DNA of 30,308 nt, from UHGV virus genome UHGV-0218987. One strand, written 5' to 3'. Below, piece by piece: positions 494 to 28,263 of this stretch. Each line of letters opens with the position of its first letter. The stretch's first letter is position 1. The notes beneath the pieces are model-generated. The model made no database searches and had not been told where the DNA came from. It saw only the letters and a program-made list of their open reading frames with translations. Source of the stretch: a virus. The position numbers and the translations under genes were made by a program.

Positions 494-1033
494 ATGAAGA
501 AAGTTTTTCTTTGCGCCATCTTAGCCTCCTTAAGCTATCCGGCTATCGCCTCATCATTGCAGGATCAACTCTCTGCTGTCGCAGAAGCGGAACAGCAAGG
601 TAAAAATGAAGAGCAAAGGCAGCATGACGAATGGGTCGCGGAGCGCAACAGGGAAATCCAGCAAGAGAAGCAACGTCGCGCAAACGCCCAGGCCGCCGCT
701 AACAAAAGAGCGGCAACGGCAGCGGCAAATAAGAAAGCTCGTCAGGATAAACTGGACGCCGAAGCCACTGCGGACAAAAAACGCGATCAAAGTTATGAAG
801 ATGAGCTACGCAGCTTAGAGATTCAGAAACAAAAACTGGCGCTGGCGAAAGAAGAAGCCCGCGTTAAGCGCGAAAACGAATTTATCGATCAGGAACTGAA
901 GCACAAAGCTGCGCAAACCGATGTGGTGCAATCTGAAGCTGACGCAAACAGGAATATGACTGAAGGCGGTCGCGATCTGATGAAAAGCGTGGGCAAAGCA
1001 GAAGAGAATAAATCAGATAGCTGGTTTAACTAA
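494..1033 (+). CDS. Secreted charged coiled-coil protein of unknown function (host or cargo gene)
   Basis: AGGAGG RBS at 484-489 before the ATG; N-terminal signal-peptide-like MKKVFLCAILASLSYPAIASS; K/E/Q/A-rich remainder; followed by an intrinsic terminator. Confidence 0.6.
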   Translation: MKKVFLCAILASLSYPAIASSLQDQLSAVAEAEQQGKNEEQRQHDEWVAERNREIQQEKQRRANAQAAANKRAATAAANKKARQDKLDAEATADKKRDQSYEDELRSLEIQKQKLALAKEEARVKRENEFIDQELKHKAAQTDVVQSEADANRNMTEGGRDLMKSVGKAEENKSDSWFN

Positions 1034-3188: not shown

Positions 3189-5933
3189 TTAACCTTTAGA
3201 AAAAACAGACAGTAACGGAAGTGTAAAAGTCGACACACCAGTATTCATCATGCAGGTTTTACCACCTGAGTATCCAGATATGGTTTGCGAAACTGGACTT
3301 CCTGTTGTTGGGAAAATGGTGATTTCATCCCCCCCCTTCAATACTCTAACTTTGCCTGTAACATCAACCGATGAACTTGAAACAGACGTGAGAGATCCGT
3401 TGGTCATTGTATAAAAGTTTATAGTTCCTGTTGCTGTTCTGCTTACACCACATCCTGATTTTTGCTTCTGTTTATAGTTAAACAATACCAGCAGGCCAAC
3501 AGGCATTGACTCAAGCTCAACTGCTGTAGACTGGTAGGTCTTACTGCCGTTTCTCATGTCAGGAGCCTCATCATCTGGATCAGAAAAATTATACCCAAGA
3601 GTTAAATCATTAACCGTGGCATTATTCCCTGTTATTCCTTTGACTTGATTAACACTTAACGGTATGTAATTAAACCCTGCAAAAAGCGGTGTTAACTTTT
3701 CTCTAAATAAAAGGCCTGGTGGGTATACTAACGAAGGTGTACCATCATATGTCACTGAGATAATATTAAGTCCCTTTTTAAGGGTTCCAATGCACGTTGT
3801 TTGTTTGCCTGTAAATGATGTTAGCCCATTGCTGGCAACTTTACCTGATAGATAAGAAGAGTTCCTGATGTCATTGAGAATGACATTGAACTGGTTAACA
3901 CGATCTGATGAAGTATAAGTTGGGTTATATGGCTCAAATAATGTTACAGAGATATCGCTTGTATCACTCCATACAAAATACCGACAAATAACATTTTCAT
4001 TTGAAGGCGTAATCCTTCCCCATCCACCAAGTGCATCAAGATAATCACCTCCACTTAATATCGAAATTGATGGGTAGTATCTGGTATTTGAAGGGTATCC
4101 AATACCAATAAATGAAAGTTGAGTAGTAGGGATTAGGTTCTTATTTTTTACAGCTGTATAAACGCGCTCTTTTAATACCTCTTTTGCAGCATAAGCACCG
4201 ATGTATGCATGTCCTATCGTTGATGGATGGCTCTGGTCAAAGACAGTACCGCCGTCACGTTTGGCAACATCAGATATAGAGTACGCGCCTATATCTGCAT
4301 AAGCGTCAGTCGTGGCAATGGACAAATCCAAAAACTCGACCTTTGGGAAAAGGCGTTCGATACGCTTCTTAATGGCTGACTCCAGGAAAGCCTTTGGCGC
4401 ATCGTTATTGTTTACAGTAACAAAGCATATCGGACAACCATATCCCCATGATTTTCTAATCAACTTTTCAAACTCATGAAAATACGCTTCAAATCCTATT
4501 GTTGGAAGTATTCCATTGTCATTAAAACCAAGGCTTATAAAAAGAACATCAGGAGCTTTTTTTCCATACGCAGCATTCTGGAAAAATCCATAGTCGAAGT
4601 TTTCATAACCCCAACCTGTCGCAAGTGACTTGCCAGACGATCCGCAGTTATATGCTTTAAAAATATTATCCGTGCTGTCGGATAGCATATTGAGGCAATC
4701 AGTAAAAATTCTGAACCATGAATGCTTACCGCCATTTAAATTATGATTGTAGTTGGTAGAGTTAAGATTTCCATCGCTACCAGTCGGGTTCGGGGTCCAT
4801 CCTGAACTATAGGCTCCATCCGTTATAGAATCACCAATGATACCTACATGGCAATCTTCTATAGTTGATTGGTAACTCTGCTTATTTGCAAATTTAGCAA
4901 TTGTTCCAAGAGCAGTAAAATCAGGGCCATTGTTAGATAGCCCAACATCAAAAACATGCTCATTACCCCATTTGTCTCTTGTGAGAATTTTACCTTCTCC
5001 AAGAAATTTAGTCACATCATCTGACGGTAAAAAATTACACCTGATGGTTACATCTTTTGGGATGTAAATCTGACCAGGGAAAGCATAAATTGCACTTCTG
5101 TTGTCAGTTGTCGTGTTAATAACGACATTTGGAACATAAAATATTGACGTTGCGTCAGTTCTATATTGTCCGTTAACAAGCTCAGATCTGAGAACCGCAT
5201 CCCCAACACCTCTCCAAGCGCCAGGACCAACACCACCAGTAGTGGTAGGAGTTGATCCTGGAGGAACTACTTTGGGCAGTGGCCCGTCCCATCTGTAGTA
5301 TTCGCCGTTGCTTTCCCAGAGAAGAACATCGTTAAGATAGATGATGGTATTACCCAACTCAAAAGATTTCTTCGTGTTATAGCCATACAATCCATTTTCT
5401 AAGGTTTCAATAATGGTGCTAAGTATGGTACTAAATTTTGCATAAAGATCATCAGTATATTTTTTTGTAGCAGCATCTTGGGGAAGAGATGGATCACGAA
5501 GATTTCTAATATAATTTGAAAGCGCGTCATAAAAAATTGCTACGTCATTTGGCTTTCTTAAAGCCAACTTATCATTTCTTAATGATTGTTGAATGAGCAT
5601 AGTAAGTTTATCAAACGCATCCTCATGTACCTCAGCGAAGAACTTACCCTGATTACGTAAATCCGTTTCCTGAGTAGCTGGTAGTTCTCGTGATATAGAT
5701 ATCTGATGACCGTTAGCCAACGCCTTCGAGAGAATTACATTACCGCCGTTATATCCTCCAGCCCCGGTAACTGTGTAATCAGTATCAAGAGCCAGCACAG
5801 CGATATTTTCGTCAAGGTCAACCACCTGTACTACCAGATCAGATTTATTGAAAACCCTAAAGGTGTACGGAAATGATGTCGTAACGCCGTTACCTGTGTA
5901 TTCGTTGTGGTCAACTTCGGTTGAGACCGTCAT
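3189..5933 (-). CDS. Tailspike / tail fibre with SGNH (GDSL) esterase domain
   Basis: 914-aa ORF with GGAGA RBS. N-terminal YTGNGVTTSFPYTF virion-attachment-like motif; central blocks GIIGDSITDG (GDSxxDG), ISLGFNDNG (GxND) and DQSHPS that together match SGNH hydrolase blocks I/III/V. Gene is visibly more AT-rich than its neighbours. Confidence 0.75.
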   Translation of the reverse strand: MTVSTEVDHNEYTGNGVTTSFPYTFRVFNKSDLVVQVVDLDENIAVLALDTDYTVTGAGGYNGGNVILSKALANGHQISISRELPATQETDLRNQGKFFAEVHEDAFDKLTMLIQQSLRNDKLALRKPNDVAIFYDALSNYIRNLRDPSLPQDAATKKYTDDLYAKFSTILSTIIETLENGLYGYNTKKSFELGNTIIYLNDVLLWESNGEYYRWDGPLPKVVPPGSTPTTTGGVGPGAWRGVGDAVLRSELVNGQYRTDATSIFYVPNVVINTTTDNRSAIYAFPGQIYIPKDVTIRCNFLPSDDVTKFLGEGKILTRDKWGNEHVFDVGLSNNGPDFTALGTIAKFANKQSYQSTIEDCHVGIIGDSITDGAYSSGWTPNPTGSDGNLNSTNYNHNLNGGKHSWFRIFTDCLNMLSDSTDNIFKAYNCGSSGKSLATGWGYENFDYGFFQNAAYGKKAPDVLFISLGFNDNGILPTIGFEAYFHEFEKLIRKSWGYGCPICFVTVNNNDAPKAFLESAIKKRIERLFPKVEFLDLSIATTDAYADIGAYSISDVAKRDGGTVFDQSHPSTIGHAYIGAYAAKEVLKERVYTAVKNKNLIPTTQLSFIGIGYPSNTRYYPSISILSGGDYLDALGGWGRITPSNENVICRYFVWSDTSDISVTLFEPYNPTYTSSDRVNQFNVILNDIRNSSYLSGKVASNGLTSFTGKQTTCIGTLKKGLNIISVTYDGTPSLVYPPGLLFREKLTPLFAGFNYIPLSVNQVKGITGNNATVNDLTLGYNFSDPDDEAPDMRNGSKTYQSTAVELESMPVGLLVLFNYKQKQKSGCGVSRTATGTINFYTMTNGSLTSVSSSSVDVTGKVRVLKGGDEITIFPTTGSPVSQTISGYSGGKTCMMNTGVSTFTLPLLSVFSKG

Positions 5934-6010: not shown

Positions 6011-6036
6011 TAGATAACCCATAAATACGAACAGAT

Positions 6037-6053
6037 ATTACCTTTCAGGTAAT
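6037..6053. promoter_or_regulatory. Perfect inverted repeat ATTACCT-TTC-AGGTAAT (operator-like)
   Basis: 7-bp perfect arms with a 3-nt spacer; same motif family as 25061-25077, 7485-7499 and 6416-6434. Confidence 0.5.
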
Positions 6054-6089
6054 TCGCAAAACGTGCTGGATAGCAAACAAATTATTTGC

Positions 6090-6109
6090 TACTGTATAAA
6101 TATACAGTT
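6090..6109 (+). promoter_or_regulatory. LexA (SOS) box TACTGTATAAATATACAGTT overlapping the promoter of the 6129 gene
   Basis: CTGT-N8-ACAG with an AT-rich spacer, a near-ideal match to the TACTG(TA)5CAGTA consensus; flanked by a -35-like TTGCTA (6086-6091) and TATTAC (6109-6114); 20 nt upstream of the start codon. Confidence 0.75.
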
Positions 6110-6128
6110 ATTACATGGAGAAGATAAG

Positions 6129-6386
6129 ATGCAGCAGTATCACTATCCACTGGAAGACGGATTTACCGAAAGGATTCACACGCCGGGAGGCGTCAGGTCA
6201 CTGGTGGAGGGATCGCACTTGATGAAATTACTCCGGGATCTCGATAAGGATGGATTTAATGTCGATGGCCCACTTGCCGAACTGACTGCACTGATTAACT
6301 ACGTCACCAGCTCACAGATGTCTATGCGGGATCTGCAAACACATCTCGACTATTGTGCCGAACAATTACGAAAACAAACCAGATAA
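6129..6386 (+). CDS. Small SOS-regulated protein, paralog of the C-terminal domain of the Bro-N antirepressor-like protein (candidate antirepressor or modulator)
   Basis: ATG at 6129 with GGAGA RBS (the listed ORF start at 6063 lies upstream of the LexA box and is unlikely). The product aligns with the C-terminus of the 6702..7412 protein (…GV…L-E-S-LM-LL…DG…V-G…AELT…RD-QTH…Y). Confidence 0.6.
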   Translation: MQQYHYPLEDGFTERIHTPGGVRSLVEGSHLMKLLRDLDKDGFNVDGPLAELTALINYVTSSQMSMRDLQTHLDYCAEQLRKQTR

Positions 6387-6400
6387 GATTTGAAATTACC

Positions 6401-6452
6401 AAGAGGAGTGCTTATATTTACCTTTGCGGTAAATTTACATCGCACTCCTCTT
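6401..6452 (+). other. Large nested hairpin (AAGAGGAGTGC … GCACTCCTCTT) enclosing inverted repeat ATTTACC-N5-GGTAAAT
   Basis: 11-bp perfect outer stem with a roughly 30-nt loop that itself contains a TTACC/GGTAA-family inverted repeat (6416-6434); followed by a second hairpin GGCACTGG-CAAAAT-CCAGTGCC at 6468-6489. Confidence 0.5.
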
Positions 6453-6522
6453 GTGCCATAGTAATCGGGCACTGGCAAAATCCAGTGCCGGGATTGGCGT
6501 CCCGAGTTACTAAGTGGCGCAT

Positions 6523-6545
6523 ACCACGCCAGACGTGGTTTTTTT
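6523..6545 (+). terminator. Rho-independent terminator (or attenuator) downstream of the 6129 gene
   Basis: Stem ACCACG / CGTGGT with loop CCAGA followed by seven T. Confidence 0.6.
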
Positions 6546-6701
6546 ATGCGTTAAGCACAGCCATATCCGAATTATGGTGGGCTGGGCAGGGGTCCGAAAG
6601 GACGCCGGTACCACTTAGGCCGGTACGCCAACCTTGTCCAGTTCACCACCAGTAATTGGCGTTGCGGTGGTGATTAAAATCACTAAGTGGAGATAACCAC
6701 C

Positions 6702-7412
6702 ATGGCTAATGCTCAAACTGCCATCTTCAAATTTGAATCTGTTAACCCTATCCGTTCCATCATTATCGATGGCCAACCATGGTTTGTAGCCCAAGACGTT
6801 TGTAGTGCGCTGCGTATCCAAAACGTCACCCAAGCACTTGAAAAACTGGATGATGATGAAAGGTCTATGTTCAACATAGGGCATGAACATCGTGCAATTT
6901 TTGACAGCCGAGTAAAAGAGATCAACATCATCTCCGAGTCAGGCCTCTACACACTGATCCTCCGCTGCCGCGATGCGGTGACACCAGGCACTATCCCCTA
7001 CCGCTTTCGTAAATGGGTTACAGGTGAGGTTCTTCCTCAGATCCGCCGCACCGGAAGTTACATTAAAAACTCGCTCCCGCAGGAAGAACGCATAAAGATG
7101 GTTGCCGACCAGGTAGCCAACGCCACAGCATCAGCAGTGATGCAGGCAATGAAGATAGAGAACAAAACCTACAGTGCCCCACTGAAGCCCGGCTACCGCA
7201 GTCTGATTCATTCTCCGTCTGGTGTTCTCGGCCTGACGGAGAACTCACTGCTGATGAATTTGCTGAACCAGTTGCAGGAAGACGGGCACGATGTATCGGG
7301 CGCGGCGGCGGAGCTGACCACCATGTTTTGCTACATCGTTGGTGTGAGCAAATGCCTGCGTGATATCCAGACTCACGCGGAGTACATCAACGACAAGGCT
7401 GGGTTCTTCTGA
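6702..7412 (+). CDS. Bro-N / KilA-N-type antirepressor-like protein
   Basis: N-terminal Bro-N signature (FKFESVNPIRSIIIDGQPWFVAQDVCSALRIQN … YRFRKWVTGEVLPQIRRTGSY). Start at ATG 6702 with GGAGA RBS (the listed ORF starts at 6687). C-terminal about 70 aa paralogous to the 6129..6386 product. Confidence 0.75.
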   Translation: MANAQTAIFKFESVNPIRSIIIDGQPWFVAQDVCSALRIQNVTQALEKLDDDERSMFNIGHEHRAIFDSRVKEINIISESGLYTLILRCRDAVTPGTIPYRFRKWVTGEVLPQIRRTGSYIKNSLPQEERIKMVADQVANATASAVMQAMKIENKTYSAPLKPGYRSLIHSPSGVLGLTENSLLMNLLNQLQEDGHDVSGAAAELTTMFCYIVGVSKCLRDIQTHAEYINDKAGFF

Positions 7413-7456
7413 CGGGCGGCGGCACAGGGATGTGCCTTTAAATAATTCTGTACAGA

Positions 7457-7559: not shown

Positions 7560-7739
7560 ATGCGAAACGAAAAATTGCAGATGCGTAGAGCGCAAGCTGC
7601 CGCAAGACGTTCTTTCAATGGAAGCGTAGAGTACGTAAAAGTTACTATGACAAAAGATCACGCAAGTCGCGTATCCCGAGCTTTCTTTGATTCTCGTAAC
7701 AATAAGGAAAATTATGAGTTCGTCTGCGTCGCAGAATGA
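7560..7739 (+). CDS. Small basic ORF (59 aa) overlapping the start of the downstream gene; candidate antitoxin or regulator
   Basis: ATG at 7560 with GAGGT RBS 6 nt upstream; ends at TGA 7737-7739, overlapping the 7714 start by 26 nt in another frame. Below the 60-aa cutoff of the supplied ORF track. No homology claimed. Confidence 0.35.
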   Translation: MRNEKLQMRRAQAAARRSFNGSVEYVKVTMTKDHASRVSRAFFDSRNNKENYEFVCVAE

Positions 7740-8259
7740 TAAAAATCAAATTGTCAGATATAAGGGTCGAGTATTGCATACGCAAAATTTCTCGGCCCTT
7801 TGTGCATCTGATCTTGAGCTGAAGAAAGTATCTGATGCCTTTACCCAGTATTGGAAAACGGGATACCATCCATCTCTTGGTAAAGATGCTGCATTTGCTC
7901 GTCCGACAGAAATGCTTAAACTAAATGTCAGGCATACTCATGTCGATAACCAAGACTATATTCCAGAAGATAGTGATAAAAAACACACTGGTAAAAAATC
8001 ATCTTGGGATGCATGGAAAAATATAGCGTCTGTGCAAGTAAAATGCATACCAACAAGTGATTGCTTTTTAGTTTATTCGGTAAATCACAATCGTGATGCG
8101 CTGGTTATGTTTTTTGTTGACGCAGATGCCCACAACATAACTGAGCAAGAAGAGTTTAAAGAGGAAGCAATCACTATCAGTTATCAATTCTTTGAGAAAA
8201 CAAAAACAGAACCAATGCCTTTAGAAGAAGATCTTTTTTCTGATAAATGGAAGGAATAA
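7714..8259 (+). CDS. AT-rich cargo protein, candidate YafO-like toxin (ribosome-dependent mRNA interferase family)
   Basis: ATG at 7714 with AAGGAA RBS (the listed ORF starts at a TTG at 7687). Motif pattern GKDAAFA … KLNVRHTHV … CFLVYSV … ALVMFFVDADAH resembles, from memory, conserved YafO blocks (GRDA…, RVAHIHL, LVY, AWLLIAIL-PEPH). Followed by a strong terminator. Confidence 0.5.
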   Translation: MSSSASQNDKNQIVRYKGRVLHTQNFSALCASDLELKKVSDAFTQYWKTGYHPSLGKDAAFARPTEMLKLNVRHTHVDNQDYIPEDSDKKHTGKKSSWDAWKNIASVQVKCIPTSDCFLVYSVNHNRDALVMFFVDADAHNITEQEEFKEEAITISYQFFEKTKTEPMPLEEDLFSDKWKE

Positions 8260-8358: not shown

Positions 8359-8919
8359 CTACATTGATATATGATTCATAAAGTAGCTTAAAGATTTACT
8401 TCCCAGAAAAGAAATTTCTTTTCCTGGATATGTCGCAATAATTGAGCATGACTTATCCCCGTTAGAGGTAACAAATCCTGAATAACCTACTTGTTCTTTA
8501 CCATTTTGTTGCTTGGCTAAAAAGTAGAGGTAGCTTATCTTTTTGCCCTCTGGGTAAAACTCTGCCAAACCAGTATCGGTGATTGAATATTTTATTCTCC
8601 CGCCTTGAGTAACGTTTTCCATCTCAAGTTTAGCTATGTCTTTTCTGTTGTATTCAGCATTGATTTTCCTTTCGAAATCAATGTTGTTTTCAAATGAGTA
8701 GGAAGCAACAGTCTGAATAGATGGGAACACGTTTATCTGGATGCCTCCACAGTCGGCACAGGTATAAAGGTATGAATCAGATGGAATCCCCATAAAAGAA
8801 AACTGAGTTACCTTAAATTTATCGTTATCTCCAAAGTATTGAAGTTCGCATTTAACATTTTGCCCTGCAAAAGAAAATGCAGACATCAATATTGAAACAA
8901 AAAATATAATTGCCTTCAT
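8359..8919 (-). CDS. Secreted (signal-peptide) protein of unknown function; AT-rich cargo gene appended to the late operon
   Basis: Signal-peptide-like N-terminus MKAIIFFVSILMSAFSFA; start overlaps the stop of the 850-aa gene (TAATG); visibly AT-rich; followed by a terminator. Confidence 0.7.
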   Translation of the reverse strand: MKAIIFFVSILMSAFSFAGQNVKCELQYFGDNDKFKVTQFSFMGIPSDSYLYTCADCGGIQINVFPSIQTVASYSFENNIDFERKINAEYNRKDIAKLEMENVTQGGRIKYSITDTGLAEFYPEGKKISYLYFLAKQQNGKEQVGYSGFVTSNGDKSCSIIATYPGKEISFLGSKSLSYFMNHISM

Positions 8920-25039: not shown

Positions 25040-25077
25040 TTGACATTTAACGCATGAATTATTACCTTTAAGGTAAG
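25040..25077 (+). promoter_or_regulatory. Promoter-like region (TTGACA) with inverted repeat ATTACCT-TTA-AGGTAA
   Basis: Consensus -35 hexamer; the operator-like inverted repeat sits where the -10 would be; lies upstream of the tRNA and Gp49-like module. Confidence 0.45.
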
Positions 25078-25398: not shown

Positions 25399-25475
25399 GT
25401 GGCATTAGCTCAGTTGGACAGAGCAACCGCCTTCTAAGCGGTTGGTCGCAGGTTCGAATCCTGCATGCCGCGCCA
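25399..25475 (+). tRNA. tRNA-Arg (anticodon UCU), argU-like, phage-borne
   Basis: Cloverleaf folded by hand: acceptor stem GTGGCAT / ATGCCGC (one G-U pair), D-arm GCTC…GAGC, anticodon stem ACCGC / GCGGT with loop CTTCTAA (anticodon TCT), T-arm GCAGG-TTCGAAT-CCTGC, discriminator G, encoded CCA. Confidence 0.85.
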
Positions 25476-28192: not shown

Positions 28193-28263
28193 CACCGTGG
28201 TAATAGTTACCGTTGTGGTAATAGTACCATGCAAAATAAAGCCGCCATAGTTGGCGGCAGTAT

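Follow-up and report, generated by a model that had tools for sequence, protein, structure and literature searches.

Antirepressors made in response to DNA damage, and others whose synthesis is controlled by small RNAs, have both been described in phages, and features of the two kinds are found together at the locus presented here. It occupies positions 6,037 to 7,412 of UHGV virus genome UHGV-0218987, a 30,308-nucleotide (nt) stretch of viral DNA that is referred to, at its full length, as the window. The locus consists of a small antirepressor gene, ant, with a LexA (SOS) box upstream of it, a spacer of 315 nt that holds the small RNA (sRNA) IsrK and the antisense RNA C4, and a gene for a Bro-N antirepressor-like protein whose C-terminal end is a paralog of the Ant protein. 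We think it probable that these are two antirepressor genes that share a repressor-binding module and hear different signals, the one the SOS response and the other an RNA switch.

The closest described system is Ant/Rep of SPC32H (Kim & Ryu 2013; Kim et al. 2016), a phage of the same genus. Its 85/86-amino-acid (aa) protein is 87% identical to the small protein of the window; it shares the position beside the tailspike gene and an aligned LexA box, and a related Rep is present in close relatives of the window. Unlike the window, SPC32H has the free Ant only, without an IsrK/C4 cassette and without a Bro-N paralog. In the 2013 work of Kim and Ryu, ant is reportedly under LexA repression and Rep is left uncleaved in the SOS response, and the constitutive Ant of SPC32N is put down to one altered base in its LexA site. 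The same work reportedly describes Ant as structurally distinct from the Tum and Gifsy antirepressors. A review (PMC7380047) names Kim & Ryu 2013 in its list of systems whose antirepressor is synthesised as a result of LexA self-cleavage, and a 2022 paper (NAR, PMC9638917) has an Ant tetramer binding two Rep dimers and breaking the Rep tetramer. Tum of 186 and Fels-2 and GfoA/GfhA/GftA of the Gifsy phages (Lemire et al. 2011) follow the same logic as ant, in that LexA represses the gene of a small protein and this protein inactivates a repressor that is itself not cleaved. Pfam and PHROG scans gave no Tum or GfoA family, no direct comparison being made, and these proteins are considered functional analogs only.

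Among the RNA-controlled systems, that of the P1/P7 immI region has a C4 RNA that blocks antirepressor synthesis (PMC8201110). The window shares with it a C4-family RNA that would be processed from the same transcript and pair via two short sequences with sites up- and downstream, the downstream site covering the ribosome-binding site so that antirepressor synthesis would be blocked. Also shared is a specificity that differs among relatives, and the promoter may likewise be under the main repressor. The window differs from P1/P7 in that it is without an intact icd-like open reading frame (ORF), its C4 is aimed at the antirepressor's own Shine-Dalgarno sequence, its antirepressor is a Bro-N protein with an Ant-like end, and the upstream targets lie in a separately terminated sRNA, IsrK. 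The nomenclature of the a and b sites used here, and the details of P1, reportedly go back to Citron and Schuster in 1990.

In the isrK-orf45-anrP region of Gifsy-1, it is the short form of IsrK that turns on, in trans, the translation of the read-through transcript (Hershko-Shalev et al. 2016, PMC4825925). A stable RNA, STnc1160, occupies the place equivalent to that of C4, AnrP induces the resident prophage, and AnrP expression results in AntQ-dependent growth arrest (PMC4825925). An IsrK with its own terminator, and read-through into a structured RNA and an antirepressor-like gene, are common to Gifsy-1 and the window. In Gifsy-1, anrP translation is coupled to orf45, whereas the corresponding ORF of the window is cut to 14 codons, and Gifsy-1 has an AntQ partner whereas the window has none. 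Lastly, the modular Bro-N/AntA/Rha/ORF6N antirepressors share with the larger protein of the window the layout of an N-terminal Bro-N followed by a swappable C-terminal module (e.g., KilA-C/ANT), but the C-terminus in the window represents the SPC32H Ant fold, which is without a Pfam family.

The ant gene and its paralog

The features that concern the two proteins are as follows.

6090 to 6109, upstream of ant: LexA (SOS) box TACTGTATAAATATACAGTT, matching 18 of 20 positions of the consensus TACTGTATATATATACAGTA
6129 to 6386, plus strand: ant, 85-aa SPC32H-type antirepressor, a free Ant domain (ATG 6129, TAA 6386)
6702 to 7412, plus strand: 236-aa Bro-N antirepressor-like protein, start codon backed by alignment
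6750 to 7037 (aa 17-112 of the 236-aa protein): Bro-N domain, Pfam PF02498, E 9.6e-20, 71.5 bits against a gathering threshold of 25.6
7164 to 7394 (aa 155-231 of the same protein): Ant-like C-terminal domain, match to 5D50_E at E 1.2e-13

Locus comparisons were made with 16 independent loci, phage-record searches with 50,697 records, and RNA covariation was assessed in five phages. The 85-aa gene lies exactly where an earlier reading made from the letters of the window, the sequence-only reading, had placed it, and its start is preceded by GGAG at 6117-6120. Judged by its similarity, the product is an ortholog of SPC32H Ant, with 86.7% identity over aa 2-84. In a phmmer search it matches PDB 5D50_E, “Anti-repressor protein”, whose structure was solved in complex with Rep, at E 1.4e-46. 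A tblastn search gave matches in 35 of the phage records, all in this phage group; the SPC32H/SPC32N match is annotated “ant: anti-repressor protein” and is found at the same site, divergent from the tailspike gene. The window gene is syntenic with SPC32H_020 and phiV10p24. A Pfam scan of the small protein gave nothing significant, and its PHROG families are exclusively 450, 15539 and 1760. A longer ORF at 6063-6386 (107 aa) was rejected as a gene, as it is an upstream extension of ant through the LexA box.

The near-consensus LexA box claimed from the sequence alone is borne out: TACTGTATAAATATACAGTT, with its two mismatches, is the sole match to TACTGTATATATATACAGTA in the window when up to three are allowed, and 0 of 100 shuffled sequences had a match. 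The shorter pattern CTGT-N8-ACAG occurs three times in the window against 0.35 expected, and the AT-rich core is found solely in the 6090-6109 copy. The box aligns with counterparts in SPC32H, phiV10, TL-2011b, Tyrion and two Klebsiella phages, whose flanking sequences have diverged, and every one of the 16 loci has a LexA-like box some 40 nt ahead of ant, an exact CTGT-N8-ACAG in ten and a one-base variant in six. The SPC32H box matches window positions 6092-6107 column for column. The deposited sequences of SPC32H and SPC32N show two differences in 601 bases around ant, one of which is within the tailspike gene. The other, at the equivalent of window position 6105, is a C-to-A change that converts CTGTATGTTTATACAG to CTGTATGTTTATAAAG and destroys the CAG half-site. 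That the box overlaps the ant promoter would follow from the orthologous SPC32H locus; in the window two weak promoter candidates can be seen by eye, TGGATA-17-TACTGT and TTGCTA-17-TATTAC. The proposal that the small protein is an SOS-triggered antirepressor is thus strongly supported by the orthology with SPC32H Ant, the conservation of the box and the SPC32N C-to-A change.

The small protein had also been described as a paralog of the C-terminus of the Bro-N protein, and a formal pairwise alignment agrees. By BLASTP, aa 2-75 of the small protein and aa 155-228 of the Bro-N protein align without gaps, with 32 of 74 residues identical (43%, E 2e-16). The paralogy is further backed by matches of both proteins to PHROG 450, currently labelled “unknown function” (small protein, 7e-48; Bro-N protein, 4e-36, aa 153-234), and to 5D50_E; the Bro-N protein also matches PHROG 130, “anti-repressor Ant”, at 8e-57. 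The N-terminal Bro-N domain of the larger protein, of DNA-binding type by annotation, was likewise recovered by Pfam, over aa 17-112. The ANT and KilA-C domains, which had been considered alongside Bro-N, did not appear: Bro-N is the sole Pfam match at E ≤ 1, there is none to ANT/KilA-C (PF03374), and the C-terminal half matches SPC32H Ant instead.

An exhaustive hidden Markov model (HMM) search with a free plus fused profile against 1.84 billion cluster representatives was needed to reveal fusions, as a word-index search with Ant gave nearly only free orthologs. The exhaustive search gave only 65 representatives, 38 of them at E ≤ 1e-10; the module is thus rare. The majority consist of the free domain, with lengths of 80-100 aa. 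In the longer matches the Ant-like domain is always C-terminal, and the N-terminal partner is Bro-N, AntA, Phage_pRha or ORF6N. The final 80 aa of the window's Bro-N protein recur without a difference at the end of one AntA fusion (P0122); therefore domain shuffling has been recent. Among the phage records the domain, free or fused, is confined to 34-35 Uetakevirus-like records with an SPC32H-type Rep.

The fused paralog is found near ant in 12 of the 16 loci and is absent from the other four. Median identity is 65% within the free Ant proteins, 51% within the fused copies and 40% between them, and each has its own signature, NYVTSSQ...THLDYC in free Ant and YIVGVSKCL...THAQYI in the fused copies. 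The free and fused copies thus appear by sequence to be two old groups, with 22 positions invariant across both. The full-length Bro-N gene is kept at 70-100% identity across many Enterobacteriaceae. It is interrupted in phiV10 (3800-4479 of locus L001), where a frameshift inside the Ant-like domain splits it into p23 and p22, and in a 183-aa variant (P0145) an internal deletion has removed the first half of the Ant-like domain. Either the fused copy has been lost or damaged in some lineages, or the phiV10 frameshift is a sequencing error. In TL-2011b (L002, 6006-7190) the domain occurs a third time, as the C-terminal part of a 314-aa “Ant”, 93% identical to that of the window. This gene adjoins an Arc-like repressor and an Rfam sar RNA, i.e., a P22 immI-type module; thus one phage can hold three differently controlled Ant-domain proteins.

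The RNA cassette

The Bro-N gene does lie downstream of the small gene, as the sequence-only reading had it, but its control does not appear to be simply that of the SOS promoter. Because IsrK and C4 sit in the spacer, the gene would be under a separate P1-immI-like RNA switch, which that reading had missed. The elements, in order, are given below.

6434 to 6462, plus strand: promoter-like sequence TTTACA-17-CATAGT, TG-extended, a 9 of 12 match, predicted IsrK promoter
6469 to 6545, plus strand: IsrK-like sRNA, Rfam RF01394, full length, 67.2 bits against a gathering threshold of 50
6494 to 6500: a1, TTGGCGT, putative C4 decoy site inside IsrK
6510 to 6517: b1, CTAAGTGG, putative C4 decoy site inside IsrK
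6523 to 6545, plus strand: IsrK intrinsic terminator
6570 to 6653, plus strand: C4 antisense RNA, Rfam RF01695, full length, 66 bits against a gathering threshold of 45
6611 to 6618: b', CCACUUAG, C4 pairing element in a hairpin loop
6625 to 6631: a', ACGCCAA, C4 pairing element, single-stranded
6656 to 6692, plus strand: Bro-N leader with the predicted C4 targets a2, TTGGCGT (6656 to 6662), and b2, CTAAGTGG (6683 to 6690)

The promoter-like sequence ends 7 nt before the IsrK start at 6469, and its TTTACA and CCATAGT are kept in the five phages. The a' and b' elements are complementary over 7 and 8 nt to a1/a2 and b1/b2, respectively, and b2 overlaps the Bro-N Shine-Dalgarno sequence GGAG (6689-6692). 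The fold of 6469-6720 (252 nt) agrees with the model structures, with z = -4.9. In the five phages there are four b' types (CCACUUAG, that of the window, CCUUUUAG, that of phiV10, CCUUUGUAG and CCGUUUAG) and two a' types (ACGCCAA and AGACCAA), and in every one of these phages b1/b2 and a1/a2 have changed to fit its own b' and a', a three-way covariation. Non-cognate pairings extend over 4-6 nt only, with the exception of the KpST11 b' with the window b2, at 9 nt. In addition, IsrK and C4 are present directly upstream of the fused paralog in exactly the 12 of 16 loci that have that paralog.

The 14-codon ORF (6574-6618) is inside C4. It stops 84 nt before the Bro-N start and is thus not adjacent to it. 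Its start at 6574, some 105 nt from that of IsrK, is equivalent in position to the first AUG of Gifsy-1 orf45. This fits a published remark on orf45, of which the nucleotide sequence is said to be conserved and the amino-acid sequence not, as would be expected if RNA were the conserved element. A further ORF, 6353-6655 (100 aa), was rejected as a gene, as it runs through the IsrK and C4 RNAs. A similar call is seen in locus L011 (8001-8960), where the 319-aa Rha plus Ant-like protein P0131 is called about 80 codons too early, through IsrK and C4; the Rfam IsrK and C4 matches inside this call are at 8003-8080 and 8103-8189.

The position of the cassette relative to ant varies. In a metagenomic locus (L009, 1466-2466) an IsrK-C4-antirepressor cassette, with an ORF6N plus Ant-like protein, is inverted with respect to ant and the tailspike gene, which indicates that the cassette moves as a unit. 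In three further loci, those of TL-2011b (L002), L008 and L017, among them two Klebsiella prophages, extra DNA lies between the cassette and ant.

Candidate Rep operators and surroundings

The Rep gene was not found within the 30-kb window, which in this respect holds only lysis and structural genes, and it lies outside. Rep of SPC32H is a 198-aa protein with an HTH_3 match and no peptidase domain. Rep homologs are present in 36 phage records, among them all 35 that have Ant; in HEMP4, the nearest relative of the window, Rep is 43% identical to SPC32H Rep over its full length.

The window contains five perfect copies of a palindrome, TTACC-N5-GGTAA, and with the one-mismatch copies the number rises to 8 against about 0.5 expected. 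The perfect copies, and an inverted repeat around one of them, are as follows.

6038 to 6052: palindrome TTACCTTTCAGGTAA, in the intergenic region of tailspike gene and ant, about 38 bp upstream of the LexA box, a likely Rep operator
6401 to 6453: 12-bp inverted repeat CAAGAGGAGTGC / GCACTCCTCTTG, which encloses the next palindrome
6418 to 6432: palindrome TTACCTTTGCGGTAA
7485 to 7499: palindrome that precedes the next operon
25062 to 25076: palindrome
28207 to 28221: palindrome

The copy at 6418-6432 abuts or overlaps the -35 sequence of the predicted IsrK promoter, and an operator-like site is found in the same place before isrK in 11 other loci. In the related loci both IsrK and the LexA box are preceded, at a distance of about 50 nt, by a copy of their own. 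The half-sites of the copy between the tailspike gene and ant are invariant in the five phages. The inverted repeat at 6401-6453 has no T-run after it, and it is therefore not a canonical terminator. The SPC32H copies form clusters between rep and cro and immediately past rep, and in HEMP4 the motif is present on both flanks of rep. This clustering around rep suggests that the motif is probably the Rep operator. If so, operators would be dispersed over the genome, as with P1 C1. By analogy with P1 C1 at the immI promoter, we infer that Rep may hold down the IsrK-C4-Bro-N transcript in the lysogen.

Sequence relationships place the window with the phiV10/epsilon15-like (Uetakevirus) prophages of E. 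coli. Phages of the phiV10 group that infect this host, such as HEMP4, TL-2011b, phiV10 and vB_EcoP_ZX5, match the region at 92-98% identity, and more distant relatives are phages of Enterobacter, Klebsiella and Salmonella in or near the genus Uetakevirus. Of 5,426 complete E. coli genomes, 214 contain at least 80% of the stretch 6030-7420, with the two genes annotated as “hypothetical protein” and “BRO-N domain-containing protein”. To the left of the locus is the tailspike gene:

3189 to 5933, minus strand: epsilon15-type tailspike gene

To the left of the tailspike gene are holins, a GH19 endolysin (4OK7-like) and an Rz-like gene, and past these lysis genes, at the left end of the window, a DUF5384 protein (494-1033, plus strand; Pfam 4e-62). 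The structural genes are on the right side.

Downstream of the Bro-N gene a 59-aa ORF (7560-7739, plus strand) overlaps a 190-aa ORF (7687-8259, plus strand) that is weakly similar to the YafO toxin (Pfam 9e-06); its TL-2011b homolog is annotated as a YafO-family type II toxin. This pair looks like a toxin-antitoxin-like moron. It has a palindrome of the Rep-operator-like kind ahead of it, and the same pair flanks the cassette in L009. Next is a 186-aa ORF (8359-8919, minus strand) whose N-terminus is hydrophobic and resembles a signal peptide, and for which neither Pfam nor PADLOC gave a match; in TL-2011b this place is taken by the P22-like Arc/Ant/sar module. A tRNA-Arg (anticodon TCT; 25399-25475, plus strand) is situated amid structural and packaging genes of the minus strand, about 330 nt downstream of the palindrome at 25062-25076.

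Mechanism, alternatives and meaning

If the two genes share a repressor-binding module, the following sequence of events can be proposed. In a lysogen, host LexA bound to the 6090-6109 box would keep ant off. Upon DNA damage LexA would cleave itself and Ant would be made, and an Ant tetramer would bind the non-cleavable Rep and dismantle the Rep tetramer, resulting in prophage induction. LexA control, Rep binding and the tetramer have been demonstrated for the ortholog and are carried over to the window by analogy; the present comparisons themselves establish the homologies, the RNA motifs, the covarying complementarities and the co-occurrence with Rep. Separately, the promoter at 6434-6462 would yield the short IsrK, and read-through of its terminator would yield C4 and the Bro-N mRNA. 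The a' and b' elements of C4 would pair with the Bro-N leader across the ribosome-binding site, and translation would be blocked; as the 14-codon ORF ends well short of the Bro-N start, this effect of C4 on the ribosome-binding site would be a direct one. IsrK, which carries the same two targets, could serve as a decoy for C4. We infer that synthesis of the Bro-N protein may be limited to situations in which there is no C4, too little of it or a C4 of non-matching specificity, for example just after infection, or on entry into the lysogen of a relative with a different C4 type. Its Ant-like C-terminus may then bind an SPC32H-type Rep, its own or that of a related prophage. Diversification of C4 among relatives would be expected if the cassette sets which phage overcomes which prophage, i.e., if it were a second immunity determinant comparable to that of P1/P7.

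Several points weigh against this reading. For LexA binding, Ant-Rep binding and C4 action alike, the experiments were made with orthologs or analogs. A simple sigma-70 scan, at its threshold, gave no promoter over the LexA box, and the spacer has no intact icd- or orf45-like coupling ORF, the 14 codons at 6574-6618 being all that is present. Identity to the SPC32H counterpart is about 42-43% for Rep of the E. coli phages and 87% for Ant, and the interaction surface may have shifted. The fused domain, at about 40% identity to free Ant and in a separate old group, could have another partner. In an AlphaFold2 model of the Bro-N protein (17-sequence alignment) the Bro-N domain is confident, and aa 124-181 and 213-236 are below 50 in predicted local distance difference test (pLDDT); because of these low values the structural likeness of the C-terminus is not confirmed independently of sequence. 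The phiV10 frameshift and the P0145 deletion also show that the fused copy is dispensable in some lineages.

The alternative that holds up best, although we regard it as rather unlikely, concerns the target of the Bro-N protein. It may be an anti-immunity weapon against the repressors of related prophages only, or a host-directed effector in the manner of AnrP to AntQ, with the shared domain merely a generic oligomerisation module. The original phiV10 record names the gene “putative anti-immunity protein”, and four b' types in five phages are as expected of a P1/P7-style immunity specificity. The AntQ-dependent growth arrest caused by Gifsy-1 AnrP (PMC4825925), and the free swapping of N-terminal domains, are also consistent with such a role. 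The confinement of the domain to phages with an SPC32H-type Rep, however, ties it to that repressor family, Gifsy-1 AnrP does induce its resident prophage, and neither Pfam nor PADLOC gave a host-directed domain; PADLOC had no defence-system match for the small protein, the Bro-N protein or their neighbours. An anti-immunity or host-directed role, itself possible, differs from the mechanism proposed above in target only.

The two genes should also be considered as one two-input switch, in which ant transcripts would read through into IsrK as a C4 sponge, or mixed Ant/Bro-N tetramers would act on Rep. We hold such a switch to be doubtful. No terminator is predicted between ant and isrK, and therefore ant transcripts would extend into IsrK with its a1/b1 decoys; these could soak up C4 and turn Bro-N translation on. 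Against an obligatory coupling are the inversion of the cassette in L009 and its separation from ant in TL-2011b and the two Klebsiella prophages. If true, the coupled switch would amplify a DNA-damage signal via an RNA sponge and a shared module, an arrangement undescribed for SPC32H, P1 and Gifsy-1.

Slightly more doubtful again is the formation of mixed oligomers by free Ant with the Ant-like C-terminus of the Bro-N protein, whereby the Bro-N protein would be titrated or activated. The homotetramer of SPC32H Ant (PMC9638917) implies that the fold has self-association surfaces, 22 positions are invariant across free and fused copies, and the two genes are adjacent in most loci. But Ant is functional alone in SPC32H and epsilon15, both of which are without a Bro-N paralog, four of the 16 loci have no fused copy, and that of phiV10 is frameshifted. 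The identity of about 40% between two old, separate groups disfavours a conserved hetero-interface, and the cassette may be inverted (L009) or apart from ant (L002, L008 and L017). The titration of the Bro-N protein by the small protein, which the sequence-only reading had offered as its second possibility, finds no direct support. Very improbable is a functionless leftover, with the Bro-N gene a decaying moron and the LexA box serving ant alone: the phiV10 frameshift, the P0145 internal deletion and the absence of the gene from Salmonella members would fit it, but a full-length gene is kept at 70-100% identity in many Enterobacteriaceae, at least 80% of the locus is found in 214 of the 5,426 E. 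coli genomes, and the RNA elements covary with their targets, which requires ongoing selection.

The reading preferred here, two antirepressor genes with a shared repressor-binding module and different inputs, is built from components that are all of known, experimentally studied kinds, namely SPC32H Ant/Rep, the C4 of P1 immI, the IsrK of Gifsy-1 and the Bro-N antirepressors. The arrangement had been called unfamiliar when the window was read on its own. Its core, a small antirepressor under LexA control, was published earlier from another phage of this genus, so it is less novel than thought. As to the paralogy, a literature search on phiV10 and Bro-N, which did not cover the key primary papers, gave no description of it. 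Three features appear to be unreported within the scope of that search: that an immI/IsrK-controlled antirepressor bears the Ant fold as its C-terminal module, that the Ant module has been shuffled behind four types of N-terminal domain, and that the upstream C4 target sites are inside IsrK.

These results allow the tailspike-adjacent “hypothetical protein” of several hundred E. coli genomes to be named as a putative LexA-controlled antirepressor, and PHROG 450 can be tied to a solved structure. By sequence similarity, the C-terminal half of Bro-N, AntA, Rha and ORF6N “antirepressors” of this kind may be assigned as a Rep-binding module. The locus joins three well-studied systems, SPC32H Ant/Rep, P1 immI and Gifsy-1 isrK, and by its layout IsrK may be seen as the upstream target (a1/b1) of a C4-type switch that has become detached; the published activating effect of IsrK would then have a simple cause. 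If the fused domain binds Rep, these phages would have two routes to derepression, one through DNA damage and one through RNA-specified immunity, and this would bear on prophage induction and on how related prophages compete with one another in E. coli, Klebsiella and Enterobacter.

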